Source: Rickettsia typhi
GTDB lineage: Bacteria > Pseudomonadota > Alphaproteobacteria > Rickettsiales > UBA1997
DNA length: 62,137 bases
Direction: 5' to 3'
Assembly (NCBI GenBank): GCA_945900795.1
Contig: CAMDJN010000001.1
Span: forward strand, 1 to 62,137
Position 1 is the first letter of the stretch; each line of letters opens with the position of its first letter. This document shows, piece after piece, positions 244-60,907 of the stretch. The notes beneath the pieces were generated by a model. The model was not told the DNA's origin. It ran no database searches and saw only the letters and a list, made by a program, of their open reading frames with translations. A program made the translations under genes and the position numbers.

Positions 244-1338
244 TTAAAAAAATTTATTCATCACCCCAACAACTTCCTTGATATCTTCCTTGCTGTGGAA
301 GTAGGAAATAGGCAGACTTAGTGTTGTGTTGTGAATTTCTTCTGAGATCGAATAACTCTCTCCAGCAAAAATTTCTTTCATTGCCTTTTGTTGATGTGGC
401 GGAACTGGATAATGGATTTCGGTTTTGATGTTGTGGTCTAGCAGATGTTGACGTAAGCGGTCTCTCTCTTTGTGTCTGATGTTGAAAATGTGGTAAACAT
501 CGTAGTAATTTTCGTCAATAACCGGCTTGATGAATCTATCTGAAAGTTCAAGTTCTTCGAAATAAATTTTTGCCAATTCGTTTTTGTGGGAATTTATCTC
601 GTCGAGTTTTTTTAATTTTACGGATAAAAATCCCGCCTGAACCTCATCCAGTCTTGAATTGTAGCCTATTAGTTCGTTGTAATATTTTGCATCAGAACCG
701 TAATTTCTAAGTTTTTTTAGAATCTTCAAAAAACTCTCATCATCTACCGTGATTGCTCCCGCGTCACCAATTGCCCCTAAATTTTTTGTCGGATAAAAAC
801 TGAATGCGCCGAAATCGCCAAAACTTCCAGCCATTCTGTTTTTGTATTTTGCGCCGTGAGCTTGAGCAGTATCTTCGATTAATTTTAGATCATGTTTCTT
901 ACAAATATTCATGATCGGATCCATGTCACAGCACTTTCCGTAAAGGTGCACAACCATTATTGCCTTGGTTTTATCGGTAATTTTTTCTTCGATTTTTGTT
1001 GGATCAATGTTGTAAGTTTTAATGTCTGGCTCAACTAAAACAGGCTTCAAACCATTTTGTAAAATAGCTAGAATAGTCGCGATGTAGGTGTTGGAAGGAA
1101 CGATCACCTCACTTCCTTTCGGAAGGTTAAGAGCGTTGAGCGAAAGAATTAATGCGTCCAATCCAGAAGCTACGCCAATGCAATATTTTCTTCCAGAATA
1201 TTTTGAGAATTCTTCTTCAAATTTTGTAACATTGGTGCCAAGGATGTACCAGCCGCTGGCAAGAGTTTTTGCAAACGAAGATTCGTAATCCTTAAAAAAA
1301 GATTGGTTAAGTTTTTGTAAATTTTCGTATTCAATCAT
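244..1338 (-). CDS. DegT/DnrJ/EryC1/StrS-family PLP-dependent sugar aminotransferase
   Basis: 364-aa ORF. The N-terminal [26 protein letters not shown] and [16 protein letters not shown] motifs are typical of this family. Confidence 0.85.
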
Positions 1339-1458
1339 CCTTGCCTGGTTTGACTTTTATTTTTTATCCACTTAAGCCCTGCGCTTAGATTTGGAGCGGT
1401 TGTAAGAAGTGGTTGAAGTTCGTTTATTTGATAAACTGTTTTTTAAAATAATTTTTTT

Positions 1459-2445
1459 ATGGTGTCACCTCGTAAAGATCAGGATAATAAATTTTCTAAA
1501 AGTGAATTGTTAGAATTCTACCGTGAAATGCTTTTAATTCGTCGCTTTGAAGAGAAGGCGGGGCAGCTTTACGGCATGGGTTTGATAGCAGGATTCTGCC
1601 ATCTTTACATCGGGCAAGAAGCGATCGCCACCGGCATGCGTTCTACGATGATTGATGGTGACAAAGTCATCACGACTTACCGTGATCACGGACACATGAT
1701 TTCTGCGGGAGCTGATCCAAAAAGAATCATGGCTGAGTTGCTTGGAAGGAGTGATGGATCCTCAAAAGGAAAAGGTGGATCAATGCATTTATTCGACACC
1801 GCTAAACATTTCTACGGCGGGCATGGAATTGTTGGAGCATCGGTTCCAATCGGCACGGGCCTTGCTTTTGCTGACAAATATCGTGGCAACAACAACGTGA
1901 CTTACTGCTATTTTGGTGATGGGGCTGCTAATCAAGGGCAGGTCTATGAAAGCTTCAACATGGCCAAGCTCTGGAACCTTCCGATACTATTCATCATTGA
2001 AAATAATCACTACGCAATGGGCACTTCACAAGCCCGCGCTTCCTCAATCGACGAGCTTCACAAACGTGGAGTTGGCTTCAATATTCCCGGCGTGAAAATT
2101 AATGGCATGGATGTTTTTGAAGTGATCAGAAACGGACAAGAATGTGTAAATTACGTTCGTGAAGGAAATGGTCCGATGATTGTTGAGATGGACACCTACC
2201 GTTACCGTGGACATTCAATGTCTGACCCCGCAACCTACAGAAGCAAAGAAGAGCTTAACTGCAAGAAGGAGCAAGACCCAATCGATTCCATCCGTACTCA
2301 CATTCTAACCAGCAAAATCGCTACTGAAGCTGATATTCAAAAAATTGATGATGAGATCAAAAAGCAAGTTAGCGATGTTGTTGAATTCGCGAAGAATAGT
2401 CCCGAGCCTGCTGAGTCGGAGCTCATGACTGAAATTTACAACTAG
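1459..2445 (+). CDS. pdhA: Pyruvate dehydrogenase E1 component, alpha subunit
   Basis: 328 aa. It has the ThDP-binding GDGA.NQG motif (YCYFGDGAANQGQVYES), plus RDHGH and YRYRGHSMSDP. Confidence 0.95.
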   Translation: MVSPRKDQDNKFSKSELLEFYREMLLIRRFEEKAGQLYGMGLIAGFCHLYIGQEAIATGMRSTMIDGDKVITTYRDHGHMISAGADPKRIMAELLGRSDGSSKGKGGSMHLFDTAKHFYGGHGIVGASVPIGTGLAFADKYRGNNNVTYCYFGDGAANQGQVYESFNMAKLWNLPILFIIENNHYAMGTSQARASSIDELHKRGVGFNIPGVKINGMDVFEVIRNGQECVNYVREGNGPMIVEMDTYRYRGHSMSDPATYRSKEELNCKKEQDPIDSIRTHILTSKIATEADIQKIDDEIKKQVSDVVEFAKNSPEPAESELMTEIYN

Positions 2446-2515
2446 AGACTCTCGATAATTTAATTACACCAAACAATATGACTAAGAATAAAGGTAAAGG
2501 AGTTCGCGTTGCAAA

Positions 2516-3358
2516 TTGGTACTGACTATTCAAATGGGGGGGGGTGTCACGTCAACAAATGGGGGTACGCCACTTTCTAAAAAAGTTGAGCCCTCGAGCC
2601 AGACTAATTTACCGAGTCAGGAAACGACAAACATGGACTTGCAGCCCACAGATACAAACACAGGTACAATCACAAATAAGGGCGATGGGAATAAAGAGGT
2701 AGGTTCAAAGCAGCTAGATGAAAAAAACAAAGGTGTGGACGATGGGGTGAAAGATAAGGGTGGGGATGGTAAGGAGGAAGAGGGTGATAAGGCGGCGAAT
2801 ATTTTTCTGATGATTGGTGGAGCGCTACTAATGCTAACTTGCATACTACTGATTTTTTTTGCTCCAGCTTTAGGTATAGCGGCTTTTGTGCCAGCTTTGG
2901 AAGGGGCGGCTGTAACTGGAGGGGTCGCGCTTGTTGGCGGGGCTGCTAGCAAACTTTTTAAAGAAAATCCAGATTCAAATAATGAAGTTGACAACAAATC
3001 ACCTAGGCCGGATGTAGAAAAAGGTAGAGGAAAAGAGTTAGAAACTGGACTAGACCACAGTCTAGCAACTAATTCAAAAGATGGTAAGGGGCCGGGTCAC
3101 AAAGTAGATCAGGATTCAGGTCAAAGTAATCCCTACGGTGCTACCCATGAACAATTGAAAGAATTTGATATAAATCACCCTTTTATGACTCAGGAAGATG
3201 AGAAGGCGGCGAGGGTGGAGGCACTTAAACAAGCAATAGATTCAGGGATAATGAGAGATCTATCATCTACTACAGCAGAGGGTGGAAATGAAGGTACATC
3301 ACCGCGAGCACCGACCTTTGCCGCGAGTGGTCAAGGTAGTATAAATATGAATAGATGA
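2516..3358 (+). CDS. Hypothetical membrane protein with a central bilobed hydrophobic domain. The likely real start is ATG 2534, which is followed directly by a G9 tract
   Basis: The ORF in the track begins at TTG; the first ATG is at 2534. Low-complexity G/K/D/E-rich N-terminal part, then about 55 hydrophobic residues (IFLMIGGALLMLTCILLIFFAPALGIAAFVPALEGAAVTGGVALVGGAA). The C-terminal tail is shared with ORF 3718-4518. Confidence 0.55.
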   Translation: MVLTIQMGGGVTSTNGGTPLSKKVEPSSQTNLPSQETTNMDLQPTDTNTGTITNKGDGNKEVGSKQLDEKNKGVDDGVKDKGGDGKEEEGDKAANIFLMIGGALLMLTCILLIFFAPALGIAAFVPALEGAAVTGGVALVGGAASKLFKENPDSNNEVDNKSPRPDVEKGRGKELETGLDHSLATNSKDGKGPGHKVDQDSGQSNPYGATHEQLKEFDINHPFMTQEDEKAARVEALKQAIDSGIMRDLSSTTAEGGNEGTSPRAPTFAASGQGSINMNR

Positions 3359-3360
3359 TA

Positions 3361-3443
3361 CTGACCAAAATTTACAATTAATCCAAACCAACATGACACT
3401 CAGAAAATTAACAGTTAGGGAAGCCTTACGCGAAGCCATCTAG
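3361..3443 (+). pseudogene. Duplicated pdhB leader plus first 16 codons (decoy pdhB start), ended by TAG
   Basis: 3361-3440 aligns almost base for base with 4529-4608, the genuine pdhB upstream region and start. It encodes [16 protein letters not shown] versus the genuine [19 protein letters not shown]. Confidence 0.85.
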
Positions 3444-3472
3444 AGTCTCTACTTTAATTACGCTAAATAACT

Positions 3473-3727
3473 ATGTCTAAAGAACTCAAACAAAAGTCTA
3501 AAGAACCCCAACAAAAGCCTAAAGAACCCCAACAAAAGCCCAGATTACTTAGCGATAAGATGGTTAGTAAACAGGAGCTTGAGGTGTATCTTCCTCTTTC
3601 ACAATTTTACGAAGACATGTCAGGCCTCACAAAAGAGCAAGAATCCAATCTGCTGGTTAATAGAGAGAAAGCGGAAGAGTATCAAAGAGAGGCGATAAAG
3701 ACTCAGGAAAATGGTGTATGCTTTTAG
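3473..3727 (+). CDS. Hypothetical protein with an N-terminal 7-aa (21-nt) tandem repeat
   Basis: 84-aa ORF with SKELKQK/SKEPQQK/PKEPQQK repeats. Its 5' flank is homologous to the flank after the pdhA stop. It overlaps the next ORF by 10 nt in another frame, so these may be two coupled genes or one frameshifted gene. Confidence 0.45.
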   Translation: MSKELKQKSKEPQQKPKEPQQKPRLLSDKMVSKQELEVYLPLSQFYEDMSGLTKEQESNLLVNREKAEEYQREAIKTQENGVCF

Positions 3728-4518
3728 AACAAGAATATCTGGTGCGCATGGTTAATTCTACTACAAATTACTCACGTTCTGCAAATAATCAGCAAGATAG
3801 TTATTCCCGGGAGATTATGGAACGAGAGAAGGATAACAAGAGAGCTGCAGAGGATCAAGTGATAAGTGGGATACAGAGAGATCAGGAAACCGAAATGGGA
3901 GATACTAAAGCTGAGTGGAGGCTTACAACCAATAACCTTGGTGAAGAGTCGATGCAACCTCAGAAAAAGAAAGATTATTTCATTAGCCATGGTTTTGGGA
4001 AAACAAATGTTAGAGAAACAGAAGGTCCTCTTCAATCGAGACCTGTAATAAATTATTACGCTCCGAAACAGTTCGCTTTTCATATGGAGGCTTCTGGATC
4101 AACACCGGGTTACAGTGTTGGTGATATTACAGTTATAACCAACGCTCAAATAATTAATAAAAAATTGCCCGAAGATCAAGAAGCAGAAAGAAAGAAACTG
4201 ACATGGGCAGATAAAGCAAAGGGTCTTTGGAATGATGGAGGCAAGACTCCTTGGCAGAGCATAAAGGCGATACTATCCCTGACATTTACAAAACAACCAG
4301 AAGAAGGTAAAAAAACTAATCAAGGCGCCGAAATGGGTGACTTTCAGAGTAATGAAGTGCAGAGGGAGGGGGCGATGGGGGGGGCACTTAAACAAGTAAG
4401 AGATTCAGGGATAATGGGAGATCTATCATCTACTACAGCAGATGGTGCGAAAGGAAATGGAGGTACATCATCGCCACCGACCGCTATCGCGACTAATAAT
4501 AAAGGTAGGGTAGTGTAA
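3718..4518 (+). CDS. Hypothetical protein; the C-terminal ~45 aa are paralogous to the tail of ORF 2516-3358
   Basis: 266-aa ORF. The tail ALKQVRDSGIMGDLSSTTADG... matches ALKQAIDSGIMRDLSSTTAEG... in the upstream ORF. A G8 tract lies at 4377-4384. Confidence 0.5.
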   Translation: MLLEQEYLVRMVNSTTNYSRSANNQQDSYSREIMEREKDNKRAAEDQVISGIQRDQETEMGDTKAEWRLTTNNLGEESMQPQKKKDYFISHGFGKTNVRETEGPLQSRPVINYYAPKQFAFHMEASGSTPGYSVGDITVITNAQIINKKLPEDQEAERKKLTWADKAKGLWNDGGKTPWQSIKAILSLTFTKQPEEGKKTNQGAEMGDFQSNEVQREGAMGGALKQVRDSGIMGDLSSTTADGAKGNGGTSSPPTAIATNNKGRVV

Positions 4519-4560
4519 ATAGATCATACTGACCAAAATTTACAATTAATCAAAACCAAT

Positions 4561-5553
4561 ATGACCCTCAGAAAACTAACAGTCCGTGAAGCCTTACGTG
4601 AAGCCATGACAGAAGAAATGCGCGCTAATCCAGAAGTTTTTGTGATGGGCGAAGAGGTTGCAGAGTACAATGGTGCCTACAAAGTTACGCAGGGACTGCT
4701 TGCGGAATTTGGTGAGAAGCGCGTGATTGACACTCCAATCACTGAGCATGGATTTGCAGGGCTTGGAGTCGGCGCAGCTTTTGCCGGCCTTACTCCAATC
4801 ATTGAATTCATGACCTTCAACTTTGCCATGCAGGCAATGGATCAAATCGTAAACTCTGCTGCAAAAACTAATTACATGTCGGGCGGACAAGTTCGTTGTC
4901 CAATTGTTTTTCGTGGACCAAACGGGGCAGCGTCTCGCGTTGGCGCTCAGCACTCGCAATGTTACGCCGCTTGGTATGGATCAATCCCTGGACTTAAAGT
5001 AATTTCTCCCTACAGCGCTGCTGATTGCAAAGGATTACTCAAGGCTGCAATTCGTGATCCAAATCCTGTAATTTTTCTTGAAAATGAAATCACCTACGGC
5101 CTCTCTTTCGAAGAGGATTACGATGATGATCATCTTGTTGAAATTGGCAAAGCAAAAGTTCTTCGTGAAGGAAAGGATGTGACAATAATCGCCTTTTCTT
5201 TAGTGGTAAAATATGCCCTTGAAGCCGCAGAAATTCTGGCTTCAAAAGGAATAGATGCAGAGGTAATTGACCTACGCACCATCCGCCCAATTGATCGCAA
5301 AACAATTGTTGAGTCGGTTAAAAAAACCTCACGCTGTGTAACGGTTGAGGAAGGATTTCCATTTGCTTCTGTAGGAAGTGAAATTGCTTCAATCTTGATG
5401 GAAGAGGCTTTCGATTACCTTGATGCCCCTGTAAAAAAACTTGCATCGGTTGATGCTCCACTACCTTACGCCGCAAATTTGGAGAAATTAGCCTTACCAA
5501 AAACTGAAAATATTGTTGCTGCTGTTGAAGAGATTTGCCGTGGGATTTTGTAA
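4561..5553 (+). CDS. pdhB: Pyruvate dehydrogenase E1 component, beta subunit
   Basis: 330 aa. [32 protein letters not shown] and the transketolase C-terminal region are typical of PdhB. Confidence 0.95.
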
Positions 5554-6534: not shown

Positions 6535-6677
6535 TAAACGTAGAGCCTGTATCGTGAGAAGGAATCTTTACTAAACGCAGGAAAGAGCTCAACAAAATGT
6601 TGGATGAGATCAATAAGTTGGCGCAGAAATGGCGCAACTCTAAAGCATCCTAAACGATGAAACTAAAATCTCCTAAA

Positions 6678-6819
6678 GGGAATCTCTAAAAATTAGATTT
6701 TTTTTTAGAAATTTTTAGGCAACAAATTTTCGAGCAGGTAAGCGTACTTAGAGGTACGTGCTCGCGAGAAAATTTGGTAACAACAAAATTTACAAAAAAA
6801 ACAATTTTTAGAGGTTCCC
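6678..6819. mobile_element. Palindromic MITE-like element, family A, copy A1 (subfamily 1)
   Basis: Near-identical to 58508-58659. Ends are gggaatctctaaaaatt ... aatttttagaggttccc, with the core gcgagcaggtaagcgtacttagaggtacgtgctcgcgag. Confidence 0.8.
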
Positions 6820-6841
6820 TAAAGTTCTTTTTCCATTTTTT

Positions 6842-7155: not shown

Positions 7156-7380
7156 ATGGCAAAATTTACGATCAGAAAATTACAAGAAAGAGGCTTCTTT
7201 AAGAATGGCTGGCTTAAGTCTTGCCACACATTTTCTTTTGCCGATTATTATGATCCGAAGCTCGTGAGTTTTCAATCGTTGCGGGTGATTAATGAGGATT
7301 TTATTGAGCCAAAAAAAGGGTTTGATTTTCATCCTCACAATAACAGGGAGATCATCACTGCTCGAAAATTTGTTGCCTAA
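7156..7380 (+). pseudogene. Pirin (YhhW-like) N-terminal fragment truncated by a half MITE
   Basis: ERGFFKNGWLKSCHTFSFADYYDPKLVSFQSLRVINEDFIEPKKGFDFHPHNNREIIT aligns with E. coli YhhW residues up to HPHKDMEILT. The reading frame then continues into MITE sequence (ARKFVA*). Confidence 0.8.
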
Positions 7381-7416
7381 AAATTTCTCAAAAAAATCTA
7401 ATTTTTAGAGCCTCCC
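7358..7416. mobile_element. Half copy of the family A MITE (left arm, inverted) abutting the pirin fragment
   Basis: ctgctcgaaaatttgttgcctaaaaatttctcaaaaaaatctaatttttagagcctccc is the reverse complement of the left arm of A1/A2. Confidence 0.7.
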
Positions 7417-7470
7417 TTGTTTCGAAAACCTTCTTCTGACTTCACAACTTTCCGATTTTAAGCCTTATTC

Positions 7471-14519: not shown

Positions 14520-14830
14520 TGGTGAGGGAGGGGGGTCTTCTCGCAATTCTTTAAAGTTTTCAGCGGGGTAATCGCCAGGAGAGCGTAAACCTTTTTCTTT
14601 AGCTCTGTGTAGGTGTTTTTTACTGACTGAGCATCGATTATGATGAGGCTAGTTTTTAGGGTCTGACCATTGTTTGTAAGGATATTTCGAATTTTTTTTT
14701 AAAGCCACTTCTAAAACTTCAGTCACTCTCCAAGATTGTGAGGTAGTAATGAAGTAAGTTCCAATCTAGAGATTCCTTCGGGTATTTAATCTGTCTCAAG
14801 TCTTTTTTGGCCCACATACCTAGGGCGGGA
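14520..14830 (-). mobile_element. Degenerate IS5-family transposase relic
   Basis: The minus-strand translation contains IRNILTNNGQTLKTSLIIIDAQSVKNT, which is the IS5-family IIDSQSVKT motif. It is preceded by MWAKKDLRQIKYPKESLDWNLLHYYLTILESD* and an A9 slippery run. It is broken by stops and frameshifts. Confidence 0.55.
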
Positions 14831-18923: not shown

Positions 18924-19364
18924 TGTAAGACAAGCGGATGATCGCTGATTTTGACTTGCGTAAGTGAGCCTGAAAATTAGAGGAAAGTCCGGACTCCGCG
19001 AGAAAATGATTCCAGCTAACGGCTGGCCAGCAACTTGAATTCATAGAGTTGGTCTGAGGGAAAGTGTCACAGAGAACATACTGCCAACTGGTTTGAATTT
19101 ATTTTCAAGCAAAGGGCGAGAGTGAAAATGTGGGGTAAGAGCCTACACGCTTTCATGGTAACATGGATTTGGAAAAACCCAATCAGGAGCAAGACCAAAT
19201 AGGAGTAGCAGGTTTTGATTTATTTCAAAACAGACGTTCTCGCGTCGTTACTCGGGTAGGTTGCTAGAGGTTAACAGTGATGTTAATCCCAGATGAATGA
19301 TCGTCGGTTGTTGTGGGTGCAAACCTGCGGCAACTACAAAATCCGGCTTATAGCTTGTCTTACA
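18924..19364 (+). ncRNA. rnpB: RNase P RNA (bacterial type A)
   Basis: The P1 stem pairs tgtaagacaagc (18924) with gcttgtcttaca (19353-19364). The P4 halves gaggaaagtccggactc and acaaaatccggcttat are present, along with ggtaagagcc and gggtaggttgc motifs. A short hairpin plus T-run follows at about 19378-19400. Confidence 0.9.
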
Positions 19365-19493
19365 GCTGAGGGTGAGGCAACGAGGGTTGCTCGTTTTCAA
19401 ATACAATCTGGAAAGGGGCAATAATTTTCAAGTGATGATAGTTCTGTAAGGATTTGGATTTAATTTTTCTTCACCTTAATGTAAGGAAGTGGT

Positions 19494-25703: not shown

Positions 25704-25917
25704 CGGAACCCCTGAAAAACCGTCTTTTTCGGTAACTTTGTCGTTCAGACCAATTTGCTCGCGAGCACGTACCTCTAAGTACGCTTACCTGCTCGCAAAC
25801 TGATCTTCCTAGAGATTCGCTTCGCTCATGCTCGTTCTCATCTAACGACGCAGGCGTCGTTTCGGCTAAAGCCGTTGATTCGAACTCCTCGAAAAATCTA
25901 GGTTTTTCAGAGGTTTC
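25704..25917. mobile_element. Family A MITE, copy A5 (subfamily 2, inverted, with an extra internal module)
   Basis: It has the same ends and core as 51440-51582 and 60757-60907 in reverse orientation. It also has an extra module of about 75 nt: gagattcgcttcgctcatgctcgttctcatctaacgacgcaggcgtcgtttcggctaaagccgttgattcgaac. Confidence 0.8.
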
Positions 25918-27426: not shown

Positions 27427-28686
27427 CTAGATAAGTTGGGATCCTTCGAAGCTGCGTAAAATGTCGTTCACGACATCATTACCAGATTCGTTAATGTTTT
27501 TTTCTGGTGTAGAATAATTTGTGGCAAGAGATGGTTTTTCTTGACCGTCTCCCAGTAGAATCTTTTGTAAATTTGGTAAAGCTATGAGATGACAGATTCT
27601 TATCATCAACATTTCAAAGGTTATTTTTGGTGATTTTGAAAGATTGACCTCAGAAATGCCCCTGAGAAGCATTTGCCAAATTCTCATAATGGAATTAAGA
27701 GAAAGTTTTTCTGAGAGTTCGCGAATCTTTTTTTGTTCTGATTCGGAATATTCCCCAAGCTCGTAATTGGTTATCAGTTTTGCTGAAGTAGTTTTGTGTG
27801 TAATTTCCAGCAGATCATTTGTTAGCTGTAAAATGTCTGAGGAGTGAGAATAGAATTCGGAAAAAATTTGAAGTGATTTTATAAAATTGCCTTCCAACAA
27901 GCTTTCAAAAAGTGAAATGGTTTTTGATTTGCTGCCTATCCCAAGCATCTTTTCTACTATTTCTGTCGCCAAAAACTTCTGATGATCATTGTTTGCGAAT
28001 GCCTGATCTAATAAAGATAAAGAATCTCTAACGGATCCCTCAGACATTTTTGCGATAAGATCTAAAGCTCGTTCTTCTGCCTCGATTTTTTCAGTCTCCA
28101 GAATTTTTTTTAAATGATTCACGATTTCTTTTTCATCGAGACGACGTAGATCGAATCTTTGGCAGCGTGAAAGGATCGTGATCGGAACTTTTTTGATTTC
28201 TGTTGTGGCAAAAATAAATTTAACGTGAGGAGGTGGTTCTTCCAAAGTTTTTAACAAAGCGTTGAAGGCGCTGTTGCTAAGCATGTGAACTTCGTCTATG
28301 ATATAAATTTTGTTTTTTGCAAGGACTGGAGCGTATGCAACTGAATCAATAATTTCTCGAATATCGTCCACGCCAGTTCTGCTGGCAGCATCAATTTCGA
28401 TTACATCTTGGTGTTTTGATGAGGCAATCAATTTGCAATTGTTGCAAATGTCGCATGATTTGGTTGAGTTATTGTCTCGGTTCAGACAATTGATTGTTTT
28501 GGCAATGATGCGTGCTGTTGTTGTTTTTCCAACCCCTCTTATTCCTGTGAGGATGTAGGCGTGATGTAGACGATTGTTTTTGATGGCGTTACTCAGCGTT
28601 GTAACCAAAACACTTTGTCCGATTAATTGGTCAAAATTTTGTGGACGATATTTGCGAGCTAAAACTAAGTAGGAGGAGTCAGACAT
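27427..28686 (-). CDS. dnaX: DNA polymerase III subunit gamma/tau (short form)
   Basis: 419 aa. It has LARKYRPQNFDQLIGQ, the Walker A motif GIRGVGKTTTARI, a Cys-rich zinc module, IYIIDEVHMLS and SRCQRF. Confidence 0.9.
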   Translation of the reverse strand: MSDSSYLVLARKYRPQNFDQLIGQSVLVTTLSNAIKNNRLHHAYILTGIRGVGKTTTARIIAKTINCLNRDNNSTKSCDICNNCKLIASSKHQDVIEIDAASRTGVDDIREIIDSVAYAPVLAKNKIYIIDEVHMLSNSAFNALLKTLEEPPPHVKFIFATTEIKKVPITILSRCQRFDLRRLDEKEIVNHLKKILETEKIEAEERALDLIAKMSEGSVRDSLSLLDQAFANNDHQKFLATEIVEKMLGIGSKSKTISLFESLLEGNFIKSLQIFSEFYSHSSDILQLTNDLLEITHKTTSAKLITNYELGEYSESEQKKIRELSEKLSLNSIMRIWQMLLRGISEVNLSKSPKITFEMLMIRICHLIALPNLQKILLGDGQEKPSLATNYSTPEKNINESGNDVVNDILRSFEGSQLI

Positions 28687-28853: not shown

Positions 28854-28997
28854 TATACCCAACCAACCTCAAGAAGCTGATTGGGTATAGTTTTTATTTT
28901 GTACGCGACACGAAGTCGCCCCCCCCAAGAATTCTTGGCTTACGGGGTCCCTATATACCAAGCAGAGTTCGGTATCTTCAATCGTGTTTGGTATATA
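28854..28997. repeat. Composite hairpin repeat, family B, copy B1
   Basis: It is the reverse complement of 51601-51730. The modules are tatacccaaccaac..gttgggtata, a gcgacacga..tcgc segment with a C8 run, and tataccaa.cagagttcggtatcttcaatcgtgtttggtata. Confidence 0.75.
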
Positions 28998-47019: not shown

Positions 47020-47204
47020 TTAAGGAGCCCTCTGAAAAACCATCTTTTTCGGTCATTTTGTCGTCAGACCAATTTGCTCGCAAACTGATCTTCCTAGAGA
47101 TTCACTTCGCTCATGCTCGTTCTCATCTAACGACGCATGCGTCGTTTCGGCTAAAGCCGTCGATTCGAACTTCTCAAAAAATACAGGTTTTTCAGAGGTT
47201 CCTT
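47020..47204. mobile_element. Family A MITE, copy A6 (has the extra module, lacks the central hairpin)
   Basis: It has the same ends and extra module as A5. The segment gagcacgtacc...cctgctcgc is missing between two tgctcgc direct repeats. Confidence 0.8.
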
Positions 47205-51439: not shown

Positions 51440-51582
51440 GGAACCTCTAAAAAGCCTGGATTTTTCGAGGCATTTTTAGGAAGATCAGTTTGCGAGCAGG
51501 TAAGCGTACTTAGAGGTACGTGCTCGCGAGCAAATTGGTCTGACGACAAAATTACCGGAAAAGATGGTTGTTCAGAGGCTCC
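51440..51582. mobile_element. Family A MITE, copy A3 (subfamily 2)
   Basis: ggaacctctaaaaagcctggatttttcgagg...gcgagcaggtaagcgtacttagaggtacgtgctcgcgag...ttcagaggctcc is near-identical to 60757-60907. Confidence 0.8.
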
Positions 51583-58473: not shown

Positions 58474-58507
58474 CTTCTCTAGGCTAGTCTTAAACTCCCC
58501 TTCACGT

Positions 58508-58659
58508 CCTAAGGGAACCTCTAAAAATTAGATTTTTTTTTAGAAATTTTTAGGCAACAAATTTTCGAGCAGGTAAGCGTACTTAGAGGTATGTGCTCGC
58601 GAGAAAATTTGGTAACGACAAAATTTACAAAAAAAGCAATTTTTAGAGGTTCCCTTAGG
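58508..58659. mobile_element. Family A MITE, copy A2 (subfamily 1, best preserved)
   Basis: It has perfect 22-nt terminal inverted repeats, cctaagggaacctctaaaaatt ... aatttttagaggttcccttagg, and the whole element is an imperfect long palindrome. Confidence 0.85.
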
Positions 58660-58707: not shown

Positions 58708-58793
58708 GCGGTCGTGGCGGAACGGTATACGCGCAACGTTGAGGTCGTTGTGGGGTAAAACCCGTGGAAGTTCAAATCTTCTCGACCGCACCA
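58708..58793 (+). tRNA. tRNA-Leu (anticodon GAG), class II with a long variable arm; CCA is encoded
   Basis: Hand-folded. The acceptor stem is gcggtcg/cgaccgc. The anticodon stem is caacg/cgttg with loop ttGAGgt. The variable arm is ggggtaaaaccc, and the T arm is ggaag-ttcaaat-cttct. Confidence 0.9.
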
Positions 58794-60756: not shown

Positions 60757-60907
60757 TTAAGGAACCTCTGAAAAACCTGGATTTTTCGAGGCATTTTTAG
60801 GAAGATCAGTTTGCGAGCAGGTAAGCGTACTTAGAGGTACGTGCTCGCGAGCAAATTGGTCTGACGACAAAATTACCGAAAAAAATGGTTTTTCAGAGGT
60901 TCCTTAA
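60757..60907. mobile_element. Family A MITE, copy A4 (subfamily 2, best preserved)
   Basis: It has perfect 21-nt terminal inverted repeats: ttaaggaacctctgaaaaacc ... ggtttttcagaggttccttaa. Confidence 0.85.

Follow-up and report, generated by a model that had tools for sequence, protein, structure and literature searches.

Two long poly-G tracts lie in frame within two orphan genes of an insert that separates pdhA from pdhB, in a 62,137-nt stretch of DNA (the window; contig CAMDJN010000001.1 of assembly GCA_945900795.1) from an uncultured Rickettsiales-like alphaproteobacterium. A tract of nine G (G9; 2536–2544) belongs to the first codons of open reading frame (ORF) 1, and a tract of eight G (G8; 4377–4384) lies towards the 3' end of ORF2b; coordinates are those of the window, and features are on the forward strand unless stated otherwise. 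The tracts are genuine, uninterrupted and more than chance gives. The tentative reading favored here, held at slightly less than even confidence, is that G9 and G8 are slipped-strand contingency switches in lineage-specific orphan genes. This reading is plausible and fits all of the frame and codon evidence, although it is unproven.

Two in-frame poly-G tracts

ORF1 (2534–3358, 274 aa) begins with the ATG at 2534–2536, whose G is the first of the nine, and its codons 1–4 read ATG GGG GGG GGT (M-G-G-G) within the surroundings ...TTCAAATGGGGGGGGGTGTCACG...; codons 220–223 of ORF2b (3718–4518, 266 aa) read ATG GGG GGG GCA (M-G-G-A) within ...GGCGATGGGGGGGGCACTT... Both placements are as an earlier sequence-only reading of this DNA had given them, and its census of homopolymer runs also stands. 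On the forward strand of the window, G runs of at least 6 comprise only two G6 runs (at 14530 and 56083), G8 and G9, and C runs of at least 6 comprise only a C6 at 22143 and a C8 at 28919–28926. The two G runs of at least 8 are both inside one 2.1-kb stretch. Two particulars of the earlier reading require correction: the window, described as very AT-rich, is moderately so (38.5% GC), and G8, described as sitting exactly at the border of a C-terminal tail common to ORF1 and ORF2b, lies 10 nt inside it, as homology between the two units begins at 4367 (3204 in the first unit).

Long G runs had been called unexpected, and both composition models and the loci of relatives bear this out. An independent and identically distributed (iid) model predicts 0.15 G runs of at least 8 across the window and 0.02 for the 2115-nt insert, and a first-order model trained on the G-rich insert itself predicts 0.097 versus the 2 observed. 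The syntenic loci of the closest relatives (148 kb; GC 26–41%) contain no G or C run of at least 7. The tract codons are also unusual. GGG is the least-used glycine codon of the genome, accounting for 9.5% of glycine codons in the reference genes, and GGG-GGG is found in only 1/43 of their Gly-Gly pairs; both tracts are made of such a pair. The tracts thus combine two hallmarks of contingency loci, an uninterrupted mononucleotide run of about 7–8 or more within an ORF and an excess of such runs over base composition.

A third hallmark, toggling between full-length and truncated products with a change of one repeat, is reproduced in silico by simulating tract lengths in the sequence. At the first tract, G9 yields the 274-aa ORF1 product, G8 a 55-aa product and G10 a 15-aa product; the earlier proposal that gain or loss of one G breaks ORF1 therefore holds if the ATG at 2534 is the start. 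At the second tract, G8 yields the 266-aa ORF2b product with its tail, and with G7 or G9 a stop codon follows 2–5 codons on and the 45-aa tail is lost, again as had been proposed.

The two ORFs look like real coding sequence. Each runs for more than 260 codons without a stop, the first codon position is enriched in G, and the host-like codon score of the insert ORFs is positive only in the annotated frame. For ORF1 this score, trained on host genes, is likewise positive in the annotated frame alone, and its GC content at third codon positions (GC3) is 0.34, versus 0.36 in host genes; ORF1 and ORF2b together range from 0.33 to 0.34, and ORF2a, a shorter ORF upstream of ORF2b, has 0.39. The ATG at 2534 is a credible start because ATG begins 33/34 of the conserved genes in the window, following A/T-rich sequence, and Shine-Dalgarno motifs are almost unused (2/34); it was also chosen by the gene caller on the contig of the European Nucleotide Archive (ENA). 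Translation initiation in this organism appears to be mostly independent of Shine-Dalgarno pairing, and a Shine-Dalgarno-like AAGGAG at 2497–2502 was rejected as a start marker, as such a motif is present in only 2/34 genes.

ORF1 contains a hydrophobic stretch of ~55 aa (aa 88–142; 2795–2959; Kyte-Doolittle windows >1.6), flanked by apparently disordered N- and C-terminal parts and consistent with a predicted two-helix membrane hairpin. A word-index search of 5.8 billion clustered proteins and a full phmmer/HMMER scan of 1.84 billion representatives each returned only the ORF1 query itself. By way of G9, its N-terminus MGGGVTS (2534–2554) matches the loose N-myristoylation pattern G-{EDRKHPFYW}-x(2)-[STAGCN]-{P}. 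This eukaryotic pattern is very common, and the match would be more than a curiosity only for a protein delivered to host cells.

ORF2b has no transmembrane segment, ends in the second copy of the tail and has an AlphaFold2 model of low confidence (pLDDT 52). The word-index search of 5.8 billion proteins again returned only the query, a profile built from both tails yielded no candidates in a family search, and ORF1, ORF2a and ORF2b have no Pfam or PADLOC matches. As regards a role at the surface or host interface, ORF1 offers a predicted hydrophobic hairpin with no domain match or homologue, and ORF2b a low-confidence model. ORF2a (3473–3727, 84 aa) and ORF2b were probably a single gene, with ORF2a as its N-terminal part, before a 1-nt frameshift within 3664–3717 separated them. 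ORF2a opens with three in-frame 21-nt repeats (3477–3540) encoding KSKEPQQ-like heptads, which form the top-scoring tandem repeat of the window (TRF score 107) and are a possible second source of length variation in the same cassette.

In the proposed mechanism, the tracts would lie inside two transcribed and translated orphan genes of a tandem two-cassette insert, and their length of 8–9 would make them prone to slipped-strand mispairing at replication. Gain or loss of one G in G9 would put ORF1 out of frame immediately after the start, turning the hairpin protein off, and the reverse change would turn it on. A like change in G8 would end ORF2b within 2–5 codons, so that the 45-aa tail common to ORF1 is lost or restored. 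Such switches would act at the level of translation, the cassette proteins varying while pdhB transcription is unaffected. From these features we infer that slippage may occur at a useful rate and reversibly, that it may be under selection, and that the proteins may act at the cell surface or host interface.

Tandem cassettes at the pdhA-pdhB junction

The insert is flanked on its 5' side by pdhA (pyruvate dehydrogenase E1 alpha; 1459–2445; Pfam E1_dh, E=1.7e-100), which adjoins pdhB in relatives, and on its 3' side by pdhB (E1 beta; 4561–5553; Pfam Transket_pyr and Transketolase_C). The relatives compared are genomes and metagenome contigs that carry annotations as Rickettsiales, Pseudomonadota or alphaproteobacterial metagenome-assembled genomes (MAGs). 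In the nearest of them, whose pdhB is 82–88% identical, the gap between pdhA and pdhB is 1–65 nt and the orthologous loci are without the entire insert. Because the two genes are adjacent in these relatives, the 2.1-kb interval is lineage-specific. The best pdhB identity in the genome-contig scan is 88%, with no second strain among its matches, and a scan of JGI metagenomes returned no contig of the same species, the best identity being 56% for a neighboring membrane protein. One relative with pdhB 87% identical (contig L086, positions 1265–3183; also L087) has this junction occupied by a different insert of 1.9 kb, which holds a type II restriction-modification pair composed of an N6_N4 methyltransferase and a protein matching PADLOC REase_II. 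Since the cassettes here and the restriction-modification system in this relative occupy the same site, the pdhA-pdhB junction is a recurrent insertion hotspot of the lineage. pdhA and pdhB are probably co-transcribed. Promoter and terminator scans performed no better than on shuffled sequence, and no known RNA family was found within the insert.

The insert consists of two tandem units whose ends are homologous (~45 nt of leader on the 5' side and ~240 nt on the 3' side) and whose bodies share no similarity. Each unit starts with the pattern CTAGAG(A/T)CTC...TTTAATTAC...ATG, which takes in the final C of pdhA and its TAG stop codon. In unit 1 this leader, CTAGAG..TTTAATTAC.. with the pdhA stop codon, occupies 2442–2477 and aligns with 3438–3472 in unit 2; the ATG that follows it opens a 15-codon mini-ORF (2478–2525) that is homologous in its start to ORF2a and out of frame with ORF1. 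Each unit ends with ~150 nt of tail-coding sequence, a ~28-nt remnant of the pdhA 3' end with the ancestral 11-nt spacer, and the start of pdhB. The tail of unit 1 extends from 3204 to 3358. The unit 1 remnant and ancestral pdhA-pdhB spacer (3355–3392) resemble the end of pdhA at 2418–2445 and are identical at 35/38 nt to their counterpart immediately 5' of the functional pdhB (4523–4560). The pdhA 3' end is therefore present in three copies. A derivation of the tail itself from the pdhA 3' coding region was considered and rejected, as only ~28 nt are similar.

Unit 1 closes with a duplicated 47-nt fragment of the pdhB 5' end (3393–3439, within a mini-ORF that runs to 3443), identical at 41/47 nt to 4561–4607. 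At the junction 3439/3440, nucleotide 47 of this fragment is fused directly to the C and TAG of the pdhA end that begin the unit 2 leader. All six differences between the fragment and functional pdhB are synonymous (6/6), including AGG versus CGT for one arginine. An old duplication in place is less likely, because a neutrally drifting fragment would not keep its peptide at such divergence. This pattern suggests that unequal or illegitimate recombination merged two diverged alleles of a cassette-bearing junction, each now represented by one unit.

The tail alignment also bears on G8. In a gap-free alignment, its unit 1 counterpart is GGGTGGAGG, an interrupted form of the same run within tail 1. 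Comparison of the two units indicates that the run at this position is made or broken by substitutions, with its length unchanged. The difference between GGGTGGAGG and G8 was counted in favor of the contingency reading, because alleles of a contingency locus are expected to gain and lose mutability. In addition, a regular-expression scan (G3+N1-7 x4) shows that G8 is contained in GGGAGGGGGCGATGGGGGGGG (4364–4384), the only canonical G-quadruplex (G4) motif on either strand of the window.

Assembly evidence and competing explanations

Exact-protein look-ups locate the organism only in sequencing run ERR3719165 and its ENA assembly ERZ27280286, and the literature searched returned no mention of the run accession. 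Over the 40.9 kb retrieved, both tracts included, the ENA contig ERZ27280286:k141_156478 (62,132 nt) shows 100% identity to the window, and the MEGAHIT assembly, recognizable by its k141 name prefix, runs through both tracts. Logan contigs represent a separate k=31 assembly of the same run and are fragmented (1.4–7.7 kb). Contig L094 (2543–3985) retains only the last two G of G9, and L081 (4385–6705) begins one base past G8. The intergenic 8-nt run at 28919–28926 (C8 on the forward strand, G8 on the reverse), which has the same immediate context (TGGGGGGGGC) and served as an internal control, is spanned by contig L096 (25886–28992). This control run is situated in a 425-nt spacer upstream of a dnaX-like gene (27427–28686, reverse strand), among short GGTATATA-type repeats.

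Among the ten Logan contig ends classified, four fall at repeats, which account for them, four in unremarkable unique sequence and two at the tracts. Repeats were rejected as the cause of the tract-end breaks, since no repeated 20-mer is present at 2543 and the one nearest to 4385 is at 4418, 33 nt in. Unexplained breaks occur about once per 4.5 kb; at this background rate, the coincidence of two of them with the tracts, to within 2 nt, is not chance, and the tracts themselves disturb the assembly graph. Breaks at both tracts but not at the control run are a suggestive hint of length heterogeneity, although not proof of it.

Several observations count against switching. The organism is represented by a single read set, so that the ENA contig is not independent, and it shows the same tract lengths. 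A simple mixture of G8, G9 and G10 should leave the shared G's at the start of a contig, but the Logan contigs keep 2 and 0. The four ends in unremarkable unique sequence point to low coverage, and the G4 context of G8, which the control run does not share, could produce a technical drop in coverage. The insert has 4.7 G runs of at least 4 per kb versus 1.0 per kb elsewhere, and the long runs could be the tail of this compositional bias. Within the genes, an in-frame ATG at 2633 makes an N-terminally shorter ORF1 possible whatever the length of G9; the conserved leader ATG of unit 1 (2478) gives only the 15-codon ORF; and the frameshift between ORF2a and ORF2b is unrelated to either tract and away from any long homopolymer.

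This frameshift makes decay a live alternative. The main rival explanation, to which we assign a probability only a little lower than that of the switch reading, is that the tracts are incidental: chance extremes of G-rich, glycine- and purine-rich orphans that are young, fast-evolving or decaying, their frameshifts being ordinary pseudogenization. Such an origin would take few steps, as two substitutions turn GGGTGGAGG into G8, and the insert is 3- to 10-fold enriched for G runs of every length. A frameshift in unit 2 outside any tract, a truncated leader ORF in unit 1, the lack of homologues in protein searches and the relatives without the insert are all in keeping with it. Composition, however, falls short of explaining the runs even when modeled locally (0.097 expected versus 2). 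Nor would incidental runs readily account for tracts that both keep frame with ORFs longer than 260 codons and of host-like codon usage, that each use the rarest glycine codon twice running, and that are distributed one per gene, with one at the textbook site directly after the start codon.

An explanation by technical artefact, in which the tract lengths or their seeming instability reflect Illumina or assembly trouble at poly-G and G4 sequences and the breaks reflect low coverage or errors, is unlikely. Homopolymers are a known source of bias in next-generation sequencing (PMC4488443; PMC3323650), G8 is within the only canonical G4 motif of the window, and the Logan contigs are short, with 4/10 of the classified ends in unique, unremarkable sequence. 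MEGAHIT nevertheless assembled through both tracts, and a Logan contig spans the control run of the same context. The length of G8 holds ORF2b in the frame of the paralogous unit 1 tail and is thus correct modulo 3, and that of G9 keeps all 274 codons of ORF1 in frame with the first ATG. Even if it applied, this explanation would touch only the hint of heterogeneity and not the existence of the tracts.

The tracts might instead mark recombination junctions, with the G4 motif at 4364–4384, and perhaps G9, promoting breaks or template switching that swap cassette bodies between conserved ends. In Neisseria, a G-quadruplex initiates pilin antigenic variation, and a canonical G4 motif adjoins the variable locus here as it does at pilE. 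The units have homologous ends and unrelated bodies, G8 and the G4 motif lie at the border between body and tail, a Logan contig begins exactly at 4385 as at a branch point of the graph, the 6/6 synonymous pdhB-fragment differences suggest a merger of two diverged alleles, and the junction is an insertion hotspot that holds a restriction-modification system in a relative. The silent donor copies of a pilE-type system are missing, however: within the window only two units share these ends, and neither comparison across the window nor the tail-profile search revealed donors or additional members of the family. The G4 motif has no counterpart at the matching position of unit 1, G9 lies away from any border of homology, and there is no sign of ongoing exchange. 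This explanation is considered very unlikely.

A bolder extension of the switch proposal, which we regard as improbable, would make the junction a hypervariable cassette site for exported host-interaction proteins, with the shared tail serving as an export signal (for example, for type IV secretion). G9 would then toggle the hairpin protein, and G8, by toggling the export tail, would place secretion instead of synthesis under phase variation. Lying between two probably co-transcribed genes, the cassettes would always be transcribed and controlled at translation only.

Elsewhere in the window, intergenic repeat families of 100–150 nt that are 93–97% identical and resemble miniature transposable elements are found at 6671–6820, 7358–7418, 25705–25915, 47075–47200, 51477–51582, 58507–58655 and 60798–60903, and several Logan contig ends are located in them. 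Inverted arms at 6699–6737 and 7358–7396 flank a 74-aa Pirin gene fragment (7156–7380). The only Rfam matches at the gathering threshold are RNase P RNA class A (238 bits; 18926–19366) and one tRNA (58708–58790).

Comparison with known systems and implications

The best functional parallel is offered by the poly-G/C contingency loci of Campylobacter jejuni. These include cj1139 (G8), cj0031 (G9) and capA (G11), with a modal length of 9, and switching has been measured at ~4x10^-4 per division for G8 and ~1.2x10^-3 for G9 (PMC3401435). The tract lengths of 8 and 9 fall within this range of measured switching and were therefore counted in favor of the switch reading. Both systems have in-frame G8–G9 tracts in an AT-rich genome, and in both a 5' tract corresponds to an ON/OFF position and a near-3' tract is placed to alter the C-terminus, as in the cj0031/cj0032 fusion (PMC3401435). 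In C. jejuni, however, switching rates are available and surface-modifying enzymes are encoded by dozens of such loci in each genome, whereas the genes here are orphans and the known tracts number three, all from one 62-kb window.

Among obligately intracellular bacteria, the closest analogues are the poly(G) tracts of the Chlamydia pmpG family. These genes carry in-frame poly(G) of 8–9, and real slippage in them has been hard to separate from sequencing artefact (PMC4488443; PMC3323650). The two systems share in-frame poly(G) of this length in genes for membrane or surface proteins and, likely, an obligately intracellular lifestyle. They differ in that Pmp proteins are conserved autotransporters with known domains, whereas ORF1 and ORF2b are without a recognizable domain or homologue and belong to another phylum. 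ORF1 also recalls the Inc-type proteins of chlamydiae and their bilobed hydrophobic domain, as its ~55-aa stretch is divisible into two helices with hydrophilic, apparently disordered flanks; with no sequence homology between them, this is a resemblance only.

Within the Rickettsiales, the arrangement of the insert resembles that of Ehrlichia ruminantium, in which tandem duplications spanning gene boundaries were reportedly described by Collins et al. in 2005 and by Frutos et al. in 2006. Here too, parts of the flanking genes are repeated within the tandem unit at its junction, leaving a truncated fragment (the 47 nt of pdhB), new intergenic space and new ORFs. Unlike in those duplications, the unit bodies here are unrelated, and as the pdhB fragment has diverged at synonymous positions only, a merger of two diverged alleles is favored over a recent duplication in place. 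A literature search on phase variation in Rickettsiales or Ehrlichia returned no match.

If the tracts do not switch, they amount to two unremarkable oddities of composition in orphan ORFs that are decaying. The structure of the locus is of interest by itself, as an operon junction that has been invaded repeatedly and now holds a tandem array seemingly derived from two diverged alleles. If the tracts do act as contingency switches, poly-G contingency genes would extend to an uncultured, probably host-associated, Rickettsiales-like alphaproteobacterial lineage known from environmental samples, and the two orphan proteins would be marked as likely factors in host or surface interaction. Poly-G tracts would then also provide a cheap pointer to such genes in MAGs.

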